Assembly: GCA_965203525.1 (NCBI GenBank)
Contig: OZ241898.1
Span: 4,695,164 to 4,759,163 of the forward strand
Source: Vicinamibacterales bacterium
Lineage (GTDB): Bacteria; Acidobacteriota; Vicinamibacteria; Vicinamibacterales; UBA8438
Length of the DNA stretch: 64,000 bases
Reading direction: 5' to 3'
The notes beneath the pieces are model-generated. The model had not been told where the DNA came from. It made no database searches and worked only from the letters and a program-made list of their open reading frames with translations. Every line of letters starts with the position of its first letter. Position 1 is the first letter of the stretch. Positions 8,252 to 53,494 of the stretch are shown here, piece after piece. Both the position numbers and the translations under genes were made by a program.

Positions 8252-10011
8252 CCTGGATTATTCATGAAGGTCGGGCATGAGGCCCCGACGGGCCATGCTC
8301 GGCCACGAAACGGGGTCTCGGACACGCGTCGGTGCGCGGGCCGCGACGCGTGGAACAGCCTTCACGGGTCTGGCGGTTGCGGACAGACGGATTCAGGACC
8401 GCCGAGGGCGAGCAACCGTCATCGAAGGCGTCGTTCGCGGGCCCGGCGGTTGCGGACAGGCGGGTTCAGGCAAGGCTCCGCCGTCGCGGGCGGTGCGGTT
8501 CGGGCTACGGGCTGCGCGGGTTTCGGACTACCCGGCGCGGGCGCCGAGGGCCAGCGCGATGCGCCGCCATGCGTTCAGATGCGGCGTCCCCCGGGGCAGA
8601 TGCAGGACGATGCGGCGCACGGAGCCGACGACGTGCACGCCGAGCTTCAGCAGCCGGTTGCGCAGCCACGTCACCTGGGTGCGGGCACAGCCGGTTCGCG
8701 CCGCCCGCAGCCGCAGTTCCTGCATGAGCACGTAGGCGGCAGCCGTCAGCAACACGCGCAACTGGTTCGCCAGGAACCGGCAGCAGCTCGTGCGGTCGAT
8801 CTGCAGACCGTCCAGCAACTCCTTGATCCGGTTCTCGACGTCGCCGCGGGCGCAGTAGACCTTCTCGTAGACGAAGCGCGGATTCTGCGGGAGATTCGTC
8901 ACGACGAAGCGCGGATTGTCCCGCGGCTCGCGGCCCGGATGCCGGACCACTTCGGCCTTGATCACGACCCGGCGTTCGCGCTTCCACGTGCGGGCCGCGT
9001 AGCGGGTGTCGGTATAGACGTGCTCGGTCCGGCCGCTGGCCCCGCTCTGCGCGCGGGCCGCCGCCATGGCGGATTCGGCCTGCCGCACCAACACCGCGTT
9101 CCTGCCCATCGCCACCACGTAGTCGAGTCCCGGTTCCGCCTCCAGGAAATCGAAGACCTCCGGGGTCGCAAAGCCCCCGTCGAGCCGGACGAGAAACGAC
9201 GTCCGCGGAAACGCCGCCCGCAGCATCGGCAGCAGCCGTCTCAGCAGGCCCAGGCTCCCGTCGGCCGCCACCGCATTGCCCGGCCGCAGCACCGCCGCGC
9301 ACAGATACTGCTCCGTCTCGTCGTTGAAGGTCAGGAACGCGAGCAGCGGCAGATAACACCAGCCGCCGTAGTGTCCGTTGAAGAACGAAAGCTGTTGTGC
9401 GCCATGCGTCAGGTCGTCGGTCGGGTCCAGATCGATGGTGATGCGCCGCACCCGCCGCCCCAGCCGGCGCCGGTGTCGCTCGATGACGCTCGCGGCCAAC
9501 TCCCGCGCCATGCGATAGAGCGCGCCGCGGCCCGGGCTGTTCTCGAACCGCGAGATCGTCGGTTGCGACGCCAGCGGCGCGCCGGCCACCGGGTCCCGTC
9601 CGAGCAGCAGCTTGTGAACGGGGTCGTCGGCCAGGTCGTCGGCATCGTTGCCGTCGGGGTGACCGCACGCGATGCCGAAGATCCGCTGCCCGACCAGTTC
9701 CGCGAGCGTGTGCCGAATCTTCTCCGGGTCGCGCCGGTCGGCGAGACAGCGGGCAAACGTCTTGACGAGGCCGTACACGCGCTCGGCCGCCTTGAGGAGA
9801 ACGGCGCCGCCGTCGGAGCTGGCGTGCTCGCGGTCGAAGGTGGCGACGAGGGGCTTGTCGAACAGTTCCGGGAACAGGACAGTCTGTGGTATCGTGTCGG
9901 TCGTCACGCAGGGGCCTCCGTGGTGGTGAAAATGGCTGTTGCCACTGCGATTTTACCGCGCGGAGGCCCTTGTGTCTCTCCCGGATCGGCACCCCCGGTG
10001 AATAATCCAGG
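8252..10011 (-). mobile_element. IS1380-family insertion sequence (complete: IRs, transposase, 4-bp TSD)
   Basis: Perfect 13-bp terminal inverted repeats CCTGGATTATTCA (8252-8264) and TGAATAATCCAGG (9999-10011). A TTAG direct repeat flanks the element (8248-8251 and 10012-10015). One 459-aa transposase ORF lies inside. Confidence 0.9.
8528..9907 (-). CDS. IS1380-family DDE transposase
   Basis: The N-terminus FDREHASSDGGAVLL...RRDPEKIRHTLAELVGQRIFGIACGHPDGNDADDL...LASQPTISRFENS is characteristic of IS1380 transposases. Confidence 0.9.
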   Translation of the reverse strand: MTTDTIPQTVLFPELFDKPLVATFDREHASSDGGAVLLKAAERVYGLVKTFARCLADRRDPEKIRHTLAELVGQRIFGIACGHPDGNDADDLADDPVHKLLLGRDPVAGAPLASQPTISRFENSPGRGALYRMARELAASVIERHRRRLGRRVRRITIDLDPTDDLTHGAQQLSFFNGHYGGWCYLPLLAFLTFNDETEQYLCAAVLRPGNAVAADGSLGLLRRLLPMLRAAFPRTSFLVRLDGGFATPEVFDFLEAEPGLDYVVAMGRNAVLVRQAESAMAAARAQSGASGRTEHVYTDTRYAARTWKRERRVVIKAEVVRHPGREPRDNPRFVVTNLPQNPRFVYEKVYCARGDVENRIKELLDGLQIDRTSCCRFLANQLRVLLTAAAYVLMQELRLRAARTGCARTQVTWLRNRLLKLGVHVVGSVRRIVLHLPRGTPHLNAWRRIALALGARAG

Positions 10012-12546: not shown

Positions 12547-12919
12547 AGCAGGATGATACCACAGCCCGGCCAGGATTGCGGCACAGAGAGCAGGCTTGAC
12601 AGAGGAAATCCGCGGGTGAGAAACAAAGGAGGATGGAAGCCGATGACTACCTCGATACGAGACTTGATGCGAGAAGAGCGTGGTTCAAGGATAGAACGGA
12701 GTACCTGAACTGCTTGGGGAATGACATGGCGAGGATCCGAAGGTCGCAGAATGCGCAGAAGGCTTGGGAAGATCAGCCGGAAGCGGAAGGTGACTGCGCA
12801 GACGCTTCGACCTCAAGCGGAGACGCAGGCCACAGCGCGAGCGGATTGAGGAGCAGGCGGTCGGCGGCCTCGTCGATCGCCTGCCGCGAAGACTTCAAAG
12901 ACGGACGGCGGGCGGGCGA

Positions 12920-13408
12920 TCAACGCCTCGCTTCGATGGCGCCCTTCACCGCCTCGAAGACGTCGCGGGCGAGCTCCTGCGAGATCCGCTCGCGGATCGC
13001 GCCGCACGGAACGAGAACGGTGCCCTCTTCGGTGTCGATGGCGACGTCCCACCGGTCGCGGGCGAGTCCCTCCGGCCGCTGCTGGATCAGCTCGCTCGAC
13101 GTCGTGGCCGCGGCCTGGTGATCGGGCCGGGCGGCGGCGGCGATGGGGGCGCCGTTGATCAGGACCCGCGCGGCGGTGATCGCCGCCTTCGGGATCGGGC
13201 GGTCACCGAGATGGAACGCCTCGGCGTCCTCGGTGAAGAAGCGCAGGCCCGCGTCCGACGGGATCTCGGCCAGGATCGTCCGCCCGCCGGCCGCCAGCGC
13301 CTCGCGTTCGCCGTGGCGCCGGCGGCGGTCGCGGGTCAGCGCCGTCGCGAGCCGCAGGGCGAAGAAGACGAGCAGCATCGCGACCAGCGCCGCCACGACG
13401 TCGCGCAT
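12920..13408 (-). CDS. Membrane-anchored hypothetical protein
   Basis: The ATG at 13408 gives MRDVVAALVAMLLVFFALRLATAL (one TM helix) followed by a soluble domain. The ORF is open to 13576, but that extension is Arg/Pro-rich. Confidence 0.6.
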   Translation of the reverse strand: MRDVVAALVAMLLVFFALRLATALTRDRRRRHGEREALAAGGRTILAEIPSDAGLRFFTEDAEAFHLGDRPIPKAAITAARVLINGAPIAAAARPDHQAAATTSSELIQQRPEGLARDRWDVAIDTEEGTVLVPCGAIRERISQELARDVFEAVKGAIEARR

Positions 13409-40211: not shown

Positions 40212-40377
40212 ATGGGCAGCAAGCAGCCGGGGCGCCCCTGGACGCTCGAAGAGGACGACGCGATCCGCGCGGCGGCCGCGGCCGAAGCCGCACGGGGCCA
40301 CCCCGAATCTGCAGGCGCGGCTGGCGGAAGTGGCGACGCGGCTCGACACCGGCGACTTCACGCCCGCGGAGGTATGA
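40212..40377 (+). pseudogene. Small Myb/SANT-like HTH ORF, apparently frameshifted
   Basis: The frame from ATG 40212 reads MGSKQPGRPWTLEEDDAIRAAAAAEAARGH. The +1 frame continues PNLQARLAEVATRLDTGDFTPAEV* (stop at 40375-40377). The switch falls at a gggg/cccc run near 40295-40305. Confidence 0.35.
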
Positions 40378-40399: not shown

Positions 40400-41005
40400 A
40401 TGGACTTGGCAGTCGTGATCGGATTCGCAGCGCTGCTCGTGACGGTCGCGGGCTTCGGGCTGGGACTTGTGGCGCAGGGTCGGTCAACGAGGAAGAGCAA
40501 CGAGGCAGCGTACCAAGCCATCAAGGAAGACTTCAACAGAAGGTTCGACGGGGTGCAGGCGCAGATGAATCAGCTCGACGCGAAGAACGACGCCGCGTAC
40601 CAAGCCATCAAGGAAGACTTCAACAGAAGGTTCGACGGGGTGCAGGCGCAGATGAATCAGCTCGACGCGAAGAACGACGCCGCCGTGAAGGACCTGAAGG
40701 AAGACGCGCGGACGGCGCACGCCGAGATCGGCGCGAACATCCGCGAATCAGGGGCGCGACTCGACGCCGCCGTGAAGGACGTCAAGGAAGACGCGCGGAC
40801 GGCGCATGCCGAGCTCGGCGCGAACATTCTCCGGGTTGACGAGAACGTCAAGGCGGCGGAGAAGAGGGTCACCGACAACTTCAACGCGCGGTTCGACGAC
40901 CTCCGGGACTACGTCCCACGGGACCCGGCGGGACCCGTGATTGACGCCCCCCGGCTGGATCGGCGATCATGCTTTCGGCCGGTGCGCCCCGCGCGCGCGG
41001 GATGA
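40400..41005 (+). CDS. N-terminally membrane-anchored repeat protein (K-N-x-A-A-[HY] repeat family, unknown function), paralogue 1
   Basis: MDLAVVIGFAALLVTVAGFGLGLV is a TM helix. It is followed by two identical 29-aa repeats (AAYQAIKEDFNRRFDGVQAQMNQLDAKND) and two diverged 29-aa repeats (AAVKD[LV]KEDARTAHAE[IL]GANI). Confidence 0.7.
   Translation: MDLAVVIGFAALLVTVAGFGLGLVAQGRSTRKSNEAAYQAIKEDFNRRFDGVQAQMNQLDAKNDAAYQAIKEDFNRRFDGVQAQMNQLDAKNDAAVKDLKEDARTAHAEIGANIRESGARLDAAVKDVKEDARTAHAELGANILRVDENVKAAEKRVTDNFNARFDDLRDYVPRDPAGPVIDAPRLDRRSCFRPVRPARAG
40508..40681 (+). repeat. Two identical 87-bp in-frame tandem repeats
   Basis: 40508-40594 equals 40595-40681 in my reading. Confidence 0.85.
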
Positions 41006-41063: not shown

Positions 41064-41384
41064 TCAAGACCCTGCCGGGCGCCGCTCGTCTTCCGGGCGG
41101 CCGGCGCTCTCCATCTGTCGGCCCTTGACCTCGCCGACTTCGAGGAAGAGCTTGTGGAAGTTGCTGTTGACCTCCCGGAAGCCATCCTTGACGTCCCGGT
41201 TGGTCTCCCGGAAGCCGTCCTCGAGCCGGGTCACGATCCGGGCGTGGGCCGTTTCGTTCTTCGCGTGCGTATCCCGGATCTCGTCGCGCAGCTTGTCCTC
41301 GCTGCGGGTGACGATCTTCCAGACCGCCGCCGCGGACAGCCCCACAACCCCGACCACCAGCGCCGCGAGCGGAATCAGGTCCAT
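41064..41384 (-). CDS. N-terminally membrane-anchored helical protein, divergent member of the same family (paralogue 2)
   Basis: MDLIPLAALVVGVVGLSAAAVW is a TM helix. DTHAKNETAHARIVTRLEDGFRETNRDVKDGFREVNSNF shares the AKNE-AHA motif. Confidence 0.65.
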   Translation of the reverse strand: MDLIPLAALVVGVVGLSAAAVWKIVTRSEDKLRDEIRDTHAKNETAHARIVTRLEDGFRETNRDVKDGFREVNSNFHKLFLEVGEVKGRQMESAGRPEDERRPAGS

Positions 41385-41424
41385 CGCAGCATTCTACTCC
41401 GCGCCGGAGCGTAAAGCGTAAAGC

Positions 41425-41824
41425 GTGCTACCGTGGCGTGTGGGCCAAGAGCCGAAGATCAACGCCGGCGAAGGCGCGACCATCCGTGCGATGCTCGGCG
41501 CCGGCGAGAGCATGGGGACGGCCGCGCGCGCCATTGGCGTGACGAAGATGGCCGTCTCGGCGTGGTGCGCCCGCGAGCGCGCAGCCGGCCGTGCCGTGCC
41601 GATCGCCCCGCAGCGGAAGCGCGCGACGCCGCCGACGTCCGGACGGCACGCGGTTCTACGTCGGCGGCCTCGACCAGCGGCGGCGCCCGTTGCGGGCCGG
41701 CGACCTCGACGCGGCCATCGCCGAGGCGGCCGGGCTGGACGCGGCCGACGTGGGGCAGATCGTCGACGTCTGGCGCTACGGCAGCCCGGACCCGGTGGCG
41801 GTCTCGGTGGACGTGGGGGGTTGA
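41425..41824 (+). pseudogene. HTH protein gene, apparently frameshifted (+1) near 41630
   Basis: The frame from GTG 41425 reads GEGATIRAMLGAGESMGTAARAIGVTKMAVSAW (HTH). The frame ending at 41824 reads PDGTRFYVGGLDQRRRPLRAGDLDAAIAEAAGLDAADVGQIVDVWRYG...VDVGG*. Its stop lies 3 nt before the next gene's ATG. Confidence 0.45.
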
Positions 41825-41827
41825 ACG

Positions 41828-42616
41828 ATGGACGACTGGATGGCCCCGATCGGATTCGGCACGCTGCTCGTGACGGTGGCGGGGTTCGGGGTGGCGCTGG
41901 TGATGCTGGTTCAGTCGATGCGGAAGAGCAACGACGCCGCGCACGCGCGGACCGAACAGAACCTCCGCGACATCAAGGGTGAGGTGACGGCACAGGTGCA
42001 GGCGCTCGACGCGAAGAACGAGGCGGCGCACGCGAAGACCGAGCAGCACGTCCGGGACCTCAGGGGCGAGGTGCAGGCGCTCGACGCGAAGAACGAGGCG
42101 GCGCACGCGAAGACCGAGCAGCACGTCCGGGACCTCGACGCGAAGAACGAGGCGGCGCACGCGAAGACCGAGCAGCACGTCCGGGACCTCGACGCGAAGA
42201 ACGAGGCGGCGCACGCGAAGACCGAGCAGCACGTCCGGGACCTCGACGCGAAGAACGAGGCGGCGCACGCGAAGACCGAGCAGCACGTCCGGGACCTCGA
42301 CGCGAAGAACGAGGCGGCGCACGCGAAGACCGAGCAGCACGTCCGGGACCTCGACGCGAAGAACGAGGCGGCGCACGCGGGGACCGCGGAGCGCATCGAC
42401 ACGTCGCGCGCCGAGGTGTTGGGGCAGGTTCGTCATCTCGACGCGAAGAACGAGGCTGCGCACGCGGGGATCGTGGAGCGCATCGACTCTTCGCGTGGCG
42501 AGGCGCTGGCGCGTGCGGACGAACACGCGCGGAAGCTCGACGCGGTTGCGCACGACGTGGCGTTCCTGGCCGGCCGCCAGAAGGAACGCGACCACCGGGA
42601 CGGCAGCGGTGCTTGA
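41828..42616 (+). CDS. N-terminally membrane-anchored repeat protein (K-N-x-A-A-H repeats), paralogue 3
   Basis: MDDWMAPIGFGTLLVTVAGFGVALVMLV is a TM helix. RKSNDAAHARTEQNL follows, then six copies of LDAKNEAAHAKTEQHVRD and two diverged copies. Confidence 0.75.
   Translation: MDDWMAPIGFGTLLVTVAGFGVALVMLVQSMRKSNDAAHARTEQNLRDIKGEVTAQVQALDAKNEAAHAKTEQHVRDLRGEVQALDAKNEAAHAKTEQHVRDLDAKNEAAHAKTEQHVRDLDAKNEAAHAKTEQHVRDLDAKNEAAHAKTEQHVRDLDAKNEAAHAKTEQHVRDLDAKNEAAHAGTAERIDTSRAEVLGQVRHLDAKNEAAHAGIVERIDSSRGEALARADEHARKLDAVAHDVAFLAGRQKERDHRDGSGA
42005..42380 (+). repeat. 54-bp in-frame tandem repeat: 6 identical units (one separated by 21 bp) plus a partial seventh
   Basis: The unit ctcgacgcgaagaacgaggcggcgcacgcgaagaccgagcagcacgtccgggac occurs at 42005, 42080, 42134, 42188, 42242 and 42296. 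A partial unit starts at 42350. Confidence 0.9.
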
Positions 42617-42627
42617 GGAGGGACACC

Positions 42628-42861
42628 ATGCCGAAGACGAGACGAACCCCGGGCGTCGCCGCGGTTCGCGCCCGCGCCGAGCAGGGCGACGCAGCCGCGC
42701 AGAACAACCTGGGGTTCATGTATGAAACCGGCGCGGGCGTCCCGCGGGATGACCGCCAGCGAGTCAGTCCGCCTCACGGCCGACGACCACGCCCTCAGGC
42801 CCCGTCGATCCGGCCGCCGGTCGCCGTGAACGGCGACCGGCGGCCGCTTCTCGGCCGGCCC
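42628..42861 (+). pseudogene. Sel1-repeat protein fragment read through into the downstream GT4 frame
   Basis: A GAGGAGG Shine-Dalgarno sequence precedes the ATG at 42628. MPKTRRTPGVAAVRARAEQGDAAAQNNLGFMYETGAGVPRDD is one Sel1 repeat. The following sequence is Arg/Pro-rich junk in this frame. Confidence 0.4.
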
Positions 42862-53044: not shown

Positions 53045-53494
53045 TCAACAACGGGACGCCGACGGACCTGATGCCGCGCGGGCCGCTTTCGCCATGCGAG
53101 CGTGCAGCTCACTCAAGGCCGTCTCGAGGAATCGGGGATCCGCCTTCAGTCGAACCAGGCGGTCCAGCGCCTGCGTCTGGATCTCCCCTCTCCTCCAGCG
53201 CTTGAGCGTGGCGATGCCGATGGACAGGTAGTCGGCGAAATCGGGCCACGTCATCGCCAGGTTCCGCCGCAGGCGGTCGATCTCGCCGATCGTGAGCAAG
53301 CCGACCTTGCGGCGGTACGCATCCGACACCGCCCGGTGGTAGGCGCGGGTGTGCCTGCCCAGGATGACCACGCGCCCACAGCGCATGCACTGCGGCGCAT
53401 GCAGGGTCACCGAGACGCGCTCGCCCTTCAGCTCGGCCTCGATGGTTCGGAGGGCTTCCTGCTCGACGACGTGCCCGCACTTGATGCACTTCAT
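53045..53494 (-). CDS. mqsA: MqsA-family antitoxin (zinc-ribbon + HTH)
   Basis: MKCIKCGH...CMRCG (YgiT-type zinc finger), then an Xre-like HTH IGEIDRLRRNLAMTWPDFADYLSIGIATLKRWRRGE. Confidence 0.85.
   Translation of the reverse strand: MKCIKCGHVVEQEALRTIEAELKGERVSVTLHAPQCMRCGRVVILGRHTRAYHRAVSDAYRRKVGLLTIGEIDRLRRNLAMTWPDFADYLSIGIATLKRWRRGEIQTQALDRLVRLKADPRFLETALSELHARMAKAARAASGPSASRC

Follow-up and report, generated by a model that had tools for sequence, protein, structure and literature searches.

How does a gene come to hold six identical copies of a 54-bp unit, and what do they do to its product? This question is raised by positions 41828-42616 of a 64-kb stretch of contig OZ241898.1 from an uncultured, soil-type Vicinamibacterales bacterium (Acidobacteriota); the whole stretch is referred to here as the window. 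The plus strand at these positions encodes a protein of 262 amino acids (aa), the repeat protein, whose gene is recognised by its open reading frame (ORF), base composition, homologues and AlphaFold2 model. Our analysis indicates that the tract is probably a variable-number tandem repeat (VNTR) in a real gene, which lengthens a membrane-anchored helix and multiplies a conserved motif, KNExAH, with a spacer or scaffold as the working model for the protein. The repeat biology is given with high confidence, the protein's role with low confidence.

The array and the helix that it encodes

By exact string search, CTCGACGCGAAGAACGAGGCGGCGCACGCGAAGACCGAGCAGCACGTCCGGGAC occurs six times, and neither strand of the window has a further copy; chance cannot have produced six identical 54-mers. 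Unit 1, which encodes LDAKNEAAHAKTEQHVRD, lies at 42005-42058 (+). It is followed by a 21-bp linker (42059-42079, +), encoding LRGEVQA and flanked by CTC microhomology, and then by five contiguous units with the same translation at 42080-42349 (+), namely 42080-42133, 42134-42187, 42188-42241, 42242-42295 and 42296-42349. Tandem Repeats Finder also returned the contiguous part (42080-42386, period 54, 5.7 copies, 99% matches, score 600), and its period-75 row corresponds to unit 1 plus linker, a 75-bp (25-aa) unit of a type seen in relatives. Diverged units lie on both sides, all on the plus strand: a membrane-proximal one (MRKSNDAAHARTEQNLRD) at 41918-41971, with 17 mismatches to the exact unit in 54 bases; a first unit of an ancestral 29-aa type (LDAKNEAAHAGTAERIDTSRAEVLGQVRH) at 42350-42436, with 12 mismatches in its first 54 bases (42350-42403); and a second, degenerate unit of the 29-aa type (LDAKNEAAHAGIVERIDSSRGEALARADEHAR) at 42437-42532, with 14 mismatches in the 54 bases from 42437 to 42490. 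The search thus agrees with the first-pass annotation, which had described six identical in-frame units, a 21-bp gap after the first and diverged units at the ends.

Every unit is in the frame of ORF 41828-42616 (+, 262 aa), and head-to-tail units with a length that is a multiple of 3, inside this ORF, make the tract an in-frame VNTR. In that frame the GC content is 0.93 at third codon positions (GC3) and 0.40 at second positions (GC2), in a window of 72% GC, a clear coding signature which points to a real gene. Three long ORFs on the opposite strand (41459-42595, 41911-42402 and 42060-42719) do not have the GC3 signature and were rejected as spurious products of the 72% GC.

The repeat protein begins with a hydrophobic membrane helix at residues 6-28 (APIGFGTLLVTVAGFGVALVMLV; 41843-41911, +), preceded by the acidic MDDW and followed by the basic SMRKS. 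Near its other end, within the C-terminal 30 residues (DVAFLAGRQKERD), stands the motif KLDAVAHDVAFLAGRQKERD at residues 236-255 of 262 (42533-42592, +), which the family alignment described below identifies as family-defining. AlphaFold2, run as a monomer on a 12-sequence alignment, predicted a single uninterrupted helix over residues 6-258, with a mean predicted local distance difference test score of 87.8 and values of 95-99 across the array; the predicted stalk, residues 36-258, would be ~33 nm long. At 100 degrees per residue, the 18-residue unit makes exactly five helical turns and adds 2.7 nm, so each unit would extend the stalk without rotating the parts beyond it, and the register is kept. 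The continuous helix is in keeping with the earlier proposal that gain or loss of a unit preserves the frame and alters the length of the stalk. If so, the protein is a clean case from nature of a single-helix membrane protein tuned in length, with register preserved by a five-turn unit. A 258-aa start variant of the protein was not on record in an exact look-up.

Copy number and unit identity among strains

Strains were compared through 16 contigs containing the exact 106-aa protein encoded next to the repeat gene. Two of them have the same arrangement as the window, one exact unit followed by five (1+5): L006, a 25-kb contig at 7.5x coverage, and L007, a metagenomic contig of 5.19 Mb at 46x. 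In L008 (21 kb, 10.5x), which comes from the same sample as L006 but represents a different strain and carries an IS21 insertion and an extra paralog, there are 1+4 units, one of them with a synonymous C-to-T change. The short-read scaffolds are interrupted at the array: L009 terminates inside it at window position 42134 and L011 at 42123, a stretch of N interrupts it in L012, and L005 has two units and no linker, a count that we do not trust. These breaks, the gap and the collapse are attributed to the array exceeding the read length. The locus is thus a concrete coding repeat that is mis-assembled by short-read metagenome scaffolds and resolved by apparently long-read contigs, a case of use to genome assembly. 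The supported counts are six units in the window, six in L006, six in L007 and five in L008, with flank identities of 97-99%.

Copy number therefore varies between close relatives, in a small sample of four haplotypes, as the first-pass annotation had expected of the tract; independent assemblies give six units rather than some other uniform count, and homologues have repeats. Exact look-up of the L006, L007 and L008 gene products in a clustered protein collection gave no match.

The units are more alike than their surroundings. Relative to the window, the flanks of L006 have diverged by 1.2%, those of L007 by 1.9% and those of L008 by 3.2%; the non-repeat part of the gene has 4, 4 and 7 differences in 444 positions, respectively, and the array has 0, 0 and 1. 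At the flank rates, 4-10 differences would be expected in the array, against the 0-1 seen. Since an array of at least five units is common to all four haplotypes, it predates their divergence. Of the two processes previously offered for the unit identity, recent expansion or ongoing homogenisation, the first fits less well, with at least five units shared despite 1.2-3.2% flank divergence. The second stands: the identity appears best explained by homogenisation that continues through slippage or unequal exchange, and a single array passed between strains by recombination would fit as well.

A route to the 54-bp unit is suggested by relatives, in which a transmembrane helix (TM) opens the arrangement TM-RKSNDAAHAKTEQHVRD-LRGEVQA-[LDAKNEAAHAGIVERIDTSRAEVLGQVRH]n. 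The membrane-proximal segment would first have been duplicated to give unit 1 and the linker (75 bp, 25 aa), the breakpoints falling within the shared N[DE]AAHA motif. Once the 21-bp linker, with CTC microhomology at its edges, had been lost, the 54-bp unit would have remained and been amplified. The same 18-aa unit type occurs, in 2.2 copies, in a more distant relative (P0025), while the 18-mers of P0137 and of P0140-P0142 have no sequence relation to the window unit. Copy number would change when replication slips, or recombination is unequal, among the identical 54-bp units, and the same process would keep them identical, as concerted evolution.

The protein family and the role of the stalk

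A word-indexed search found 15 close relatives of the repeat protein. An exhaustive profile search extended these to 106 cluster representatives at E<=1e-3, and a second profile search to 159 proteins at E<=1e-5, none with a meaningful name or domain. As delimited by these searches, the family is rare and unnamed, with ~160 proteins, and uncharacterised. Common to its members are an N-terminal membrane helix, an [AE][KE]NExAH motif, a variable middle and a C-terminal LDAxAxDVAFLAGRQxERD. We defined membership by the [AE][KE]NExAH motif, by the C-terminal motif within ~25 residues of the end and by a hydrophobic N-terminal helix flanked by acidic or neutral residues on its N-terminal side and by basic ones on its C-terminal side; the repeat protein has these helix flanks, the KNExAH motifs and the C-terminal motif. 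Across 24 diverse members, D243, G249, R250 and E253 are invariant, and V244, F246, L247, A248, R254 and D255 are at least 90% conserved. The K, N, A and H columns of KNExAH are likewise invariant or at least 90% conserved. These two sharp motifs could become an annotation profile.

Matches to described domains were limited to coiled-coil signals. For the repeat protein, the best Pfam match (15.2 bits against a cut-off of 27.7) and the best NCBIfam match (14.7 bits against 300) were generic coiled-coil noise, the homologues have no Pfam domains or coiled-coil ones only, PHROGs and PADLOC gave sub-threshold coiled-coil matches, and a sequence search of the PDB gave nothing below E=0.18. The family seems confined to assemblies in ENA, Logan and NCBI: among GTDB species representatives 166 pattern matches yielded 0 confirmed members, 2.9 million IMG/VR viral contigs held none, and no member was confirmed in JGI metagenomes. 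A degenerate-DNA search for DVAFLAGRQ returned 29 loci, all of which were translated and rejected as chance matches in unrelated or non-coding frames. A literature search on Vicinamibacterales with repeats found nothing relevant.

Family members are 69-262 aa long (median 114), and the repeat protein is the longest intact one. High-identity internal repeats were detected in 37 of 129 members, with periods of 7 (16 members), 11 (9), 18 (8), 29 (3) and 9 (1) residues; all but the period of 9, that is 36 of 37, are near whole helical turns, although many members are related and the counts are descriptive. Judged from these sequences, repeat expansion of the stalk is recurrent in the family, and the window holds its most extreme case.

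Membrane topology could be addressed across the 116 members with a clear N-terminal hydrophobic segment. In 114 of these, the 15 residues after the helix hold more K/R than those before it, with two ties and no reversal, and family N-termini are acidic (MDDW, MED, MDL). Because of this positive-inside bias we infer that the N-terminus is outside and the C-terminus inside, which would make the stalk cytoplasmic. The first-pass annotation had allowed for an extracellular or a cytoplasmic stalk; the charge bias favours the latter and disfavours the former.

We propose that the repeat protein may be a membrane-anchored spacer or a multivalent scaffold, in which the conserved tip and/or the KNExAH array would be held at a strain-specific distance from the inner membrane. 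A number of points weigh against the overall reading of the tract and its product. The role is drawn from architecture alone, with no homology to a characterised protein, and no conserved partner gene was found in the inspected neighbourhoods of relatives; the cytoplasmic placement has a single basis, the positive-inside rule. Only four haplotypes are resolved, three of them with six units, and the tract varies with no indication of hypermutability. Unit counts were taken from assembled contigs, and L006-L008 are presumably long-read assemblies, an assumption made from the ctgN_coverage-x_l style of their names and the Mb-scale contig. Finally, the narrow helix face of the unit, formed by A8, L1, T12, N5 and V16 (340-60 degrees) and flanked by H15 and H9, provides a weak hydrophobic seam (L1 and V16 with Ala, Thr and Asn; moment 0.38), and the strongest hydrophobicity period is 3.0, with 3.62 in third place and no clean peak at 3.5-3.6, so that the stalk may be a single stable helix instead of a coiled-coil oligomer.

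The most serious rival is that the tract is a neutral by-product of slippage-prone DNA in a long helix that tolerates whole-turn insertions, its length and motif number having no role. The equal unit number of three of the four resolved haplotypes would suit neutrality, as would the failure to find conserved partner genes and the spread of lengths around the median, by which stalk length is not tightly constrained. Yet the repeated unit is no featureless spacer, since it holds the most conserved motif of the family, and the whole-turn periods suggest selection at least for helical register. We therefore regard neutrality as possible, though clearly the less probable account.

A periplasmic stalk, with the N-terminus in and the C-terminus out, would turn the protein into an envelope-spanning ruler or tether similar to the phage Rz i-spanin or Lpp. 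Its predicted 33 nm is within the range of Gram-negative periplasm width, the locus lies within a polysaccharide export and assembly cluster, one paralog adjoins an integrase, and weak PHROG matches to Rz-like spanins were obtained (E=0.02 for the window's paralog 3, 1.2e-4 and 3.2e-4 for the relative P0012). Against this, the N-terminus is acidic and without K/R, and in 114 of 116 members the basic residues come after the helix; the surrounding genes include no lipoprotein partner, holin or endolysin; the viral contigs contained 0 members; and most members, at a median of 114 aa, would be far too short for the periplasm. We consider this topology improbable.

The histidines of the unit had also been proposed, as an H-x5-H pair, to scale metal- or ligand-binding capacity with repeat number. 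The stalk is indeed 8.5% His (19 residues), and the His of KNExAH is conserved and shares a helical face with the conserved Asn, one turn away (40 and 80 degrees). The two unit histidines, at positions 9 and 15 (i, i+6), are however 240 degrees apart on the helix, which excludes chelation within one helix; only H9, inside KNExAH, is conserved in the family, the second being specific to the window unit type; and there was neither a metal-binding family among the Pfam and NCBIfam matches nor a related solved structure. The scaling proposal for the pair is unsupported, and we hold a histidine-based binding array with copy-number-dependent capacity to be quite improbable. Every unit brings one further KNExAH copy; the repeat protein has nine [KS]N[ED]AAHA motifs, against a family median of one, and if KNExAH is a binding site, the array would multiply it.

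That the six-unit array is an assembly artefact, expanded or collapsed, is largely refuted already and hardly credible: the short-read assemblies do disagree (two units in L005, an N-gap in L012, ends inside the array in L009 and L011), but an identical 1+5 structure stands in three independent assemblies (the window, L006 and L007), one of them the 5.19-Mb contig at 46x coverage, and an array of 324 bp is trivially within the span of long reads.

The locus, its relatives and known systems

The window is chromosomal, with genes for an E2 acyltransferase, LipB, ThiI, ThyX and beta-oxidation. For ThiI, the top-scoring matches (88-90% identity) all come from MAGs of Vicinamibacterales, within Acidobacteriota. 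From ~28 to 56 kb it contains a polysaccharide locus with epimerases, three GT4 glycosyltransferases, AsnB, a Wzy_C protein, a MurJ-like flippase and a GNVR protein, and in the middle of this locus three paralogs are clustered: the repeat gene and paralogs 1 and 3. Paralog 1 (201 aa; 40400-41005, +) has 87-bp (29-aa) repeats of its own at 40499-40705, in 2.4 copies at 97% identity, and a second pair with the same 87-bp spacing, at 40675/40762, brings the repeated region to 40499-40827. The two 87-bp units of paralog 1 in L005 share two substitutions absent from every other strain; on a short-read scaffold this is weak evidence, which could reflect concerted evolution or an assembly artefact. 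Paralog 3 (106 aa; 41064-41384, -) is the minimal member, combining a membrane helix, a single AKNETAHA motif and a degenerate form of the C-terminal motif. An upstream ORF of 77 aa (41591-41824, +) has no family match and was called as a gene in L006, L009 and L011. Only 3 bases separate its stop codon from the ATG of the repeat gene, and the two are therefore probably co-transcribed; exact look-up of its product found nothing on record. Elsewhere in the window are a MqsA-like antitoxin (53045-53494, -; Pfam E=7e-8) and a DDE_Tnp_1_4 transposase (8528-9907, -; E=1e-125).

The locus is unstable across strains. A 236-bp segment (41402-41637), which encodes a helix-turn-helix-like peptide (41425 to ~41610), is present or absent between strains, and is missing in L005, where TCCG microhomology marks the junctions. 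Window positions 41539-41620 are replaced in L008. The coding frame switches precisely where the 77-aa ORF is joined. A fourth family copy, of 122 aa, occurs in L007 (10703-11071) and L008 (~12600-13000), so that the number of paralogs at the locus also varies; it is truncated in the C-terminal motif (DVAFLAVTVI) and adjoins IS21/ISL3 elements.

Downstream of the repeat gene, a Sel1-repeat remnant (AAAQNNLGFMYETGAGVPRDD; 42613-42760) is fused in frame to a glycosyltransferase ORF. The synteny of L005 breaks in this remnant, right after the stop codon, and beyond the break (L005 1740-2230) are a different Sel1-like remnant and a peptidase M10 gene; in P0008 and P0014, the family N-terminus is fused to Sel1-like sequence. 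The junction may be a recombination hotspot or a product of chimeric short-read assembly. Also in L005, near window position ~42580, a one-base insertion (CAGAAGGGAACG vs CAGAAGGAACG), either a real frameshift or a short-read error, extends the homologue to 342 aa (P0001).

On the other side of the cluster, at window positions 40212-40375, a SANT/Myb-like N-terminus (GRPWTLEEDDAIRAA) is joined to a ~75-bp segment encoding EAARGHP/PNLQARLAEVATRLDTGDF. In L125 (5685-6450) the ~75-bp segment is directly downstream of the relative P0136, which is itself preceded by an intact 98-aa SANT-like ORF. The frame at a C-run differs, with CCCC in the window, L006, L007, L009 and L013 and CCCCCC in L125. 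The region at 40212-40375 looks like a recombination scar between cassettes of a small DNA-binding ORF and a membrane-helix gene.

Relatives elsewhere share the theme of variable, island-like regions. Downstream of ybaB-recR, P0007 adjoins a tyrosine integrase. Fragments of CitMHS enclose P0136, which shares a genome with the window's neighbour gene and has DndB, ISL3 and PLD genes close by. P0036 adjoins VapBC; P0204 belongs to a type I restriction-modification locus that also encodes a TIR protein; P0157 is in another polysaccharide locus; and P0173 and P0140 are among methyltransferases. A small protein encoded 0.8 kb upstream of P0173 (L128 4877-5176) has an N-terminal membrane helix and 7-residue NGRFDDL repeats, and resembles paralogs 1 and 3 of the window in its RFDD motifs, a hint that anchored repeat helices form a wider superfamily.

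Taken at its broadest, the spacer or scaffold model would make these proteins an undescribed class of membrane-anchored rulers or multivalent scaffolds in flexible islands of Acidobacteriota and possibly other phyla. The islands would be polysaccharide loci, restriction-modification or defence islands and integrase-flanked elements, often with a small DNA-binding ORF preceding the gene, and both reach and KNExAH number would be tuned per strain by whole-turn repeats of 7, 11, 18 or 29 residues. We put this forward as a speculative extension that is unlikely to hold; if true, the module might serve as a new device for sensing, tethering or exclusion.

In-frame variable repeats are well known in bacterial rod-like proteins, whereas the family described here is uncharacterised. 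Among partial counterparts, Rz-type i-spanins of phages likewise combine a membrane helix at the N-terminus with a helical rod of 100-150 aa, and weak PHROG matches (0.02 to 1e-4) were obtained; unlike the spanins, the repeat protein has the opposite predicted topology, is without an o-spanin, lysis cassette or flanking phage genes, and belongs to a family absent from viral contigs. ZorA, of the Zorya anti-phage system, in which tail length is thought to matter, also has a very long helical tail after the membrane, and ZorA models gave the best PADLOC matches (E=4.4e-5 and 7e-5). These matches are limited to tail positions 334-517 of 699, the repeat protein has a single membrane helix and no MotA/ExbB channel domain, and ZorB, ZorC and ZorD were not seen among the neighbours scanned.

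Parallels in topology are E. coli YhcB (DUF1043) and PspB. Both are bitopic, keep the N-terminus outside and place a helical or coiled-coil domain in the cytoplasm, and YhcB acts in envelope biogenesis. The repeat protein has the same predicted short external N-terminus, single membrane helix, basic flank and cytoplasmic helix, and its locus is in a polysaccharide cluster. It has no DUF1043 or PspB match at E<=1 in Pfam or NCBIfam, and those proteins have neither tandem repeats nor DVAFLAGRQ. Borrelia Bdr proteins, which are plasmid-borne in spirochaetes and of unknown function, have a C-terminal helix anchor and 11-residue repeats. The repeat protein is instead anchored N-terminally, and the Pfam scan gave no Bdr match; common to both are multi-copy paralogs and small, helical, inner-membrane-anchored proteins with central tandem repeats that vary between paralogs and strains.

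The repeats themselves have counterparts in streptococcal M proteins and the group B streptococcal alpha C protein, size-variable coiled-coil surface proteins. These are secreted and wall-anchored antigens of Firmicutes, with a signal peptide and LPXTG, and are under immune selection, whereas the repeat protein is anchored by a membrane helix at its N-terminus, has a stalk that is probably cytoplasmic and is unrelated to them in sequence. What they have in common is the genetic device: identical in-frame tandem units, varying in number between strains through intragenic recombination or slippage, by which a helical rod is lengthened.

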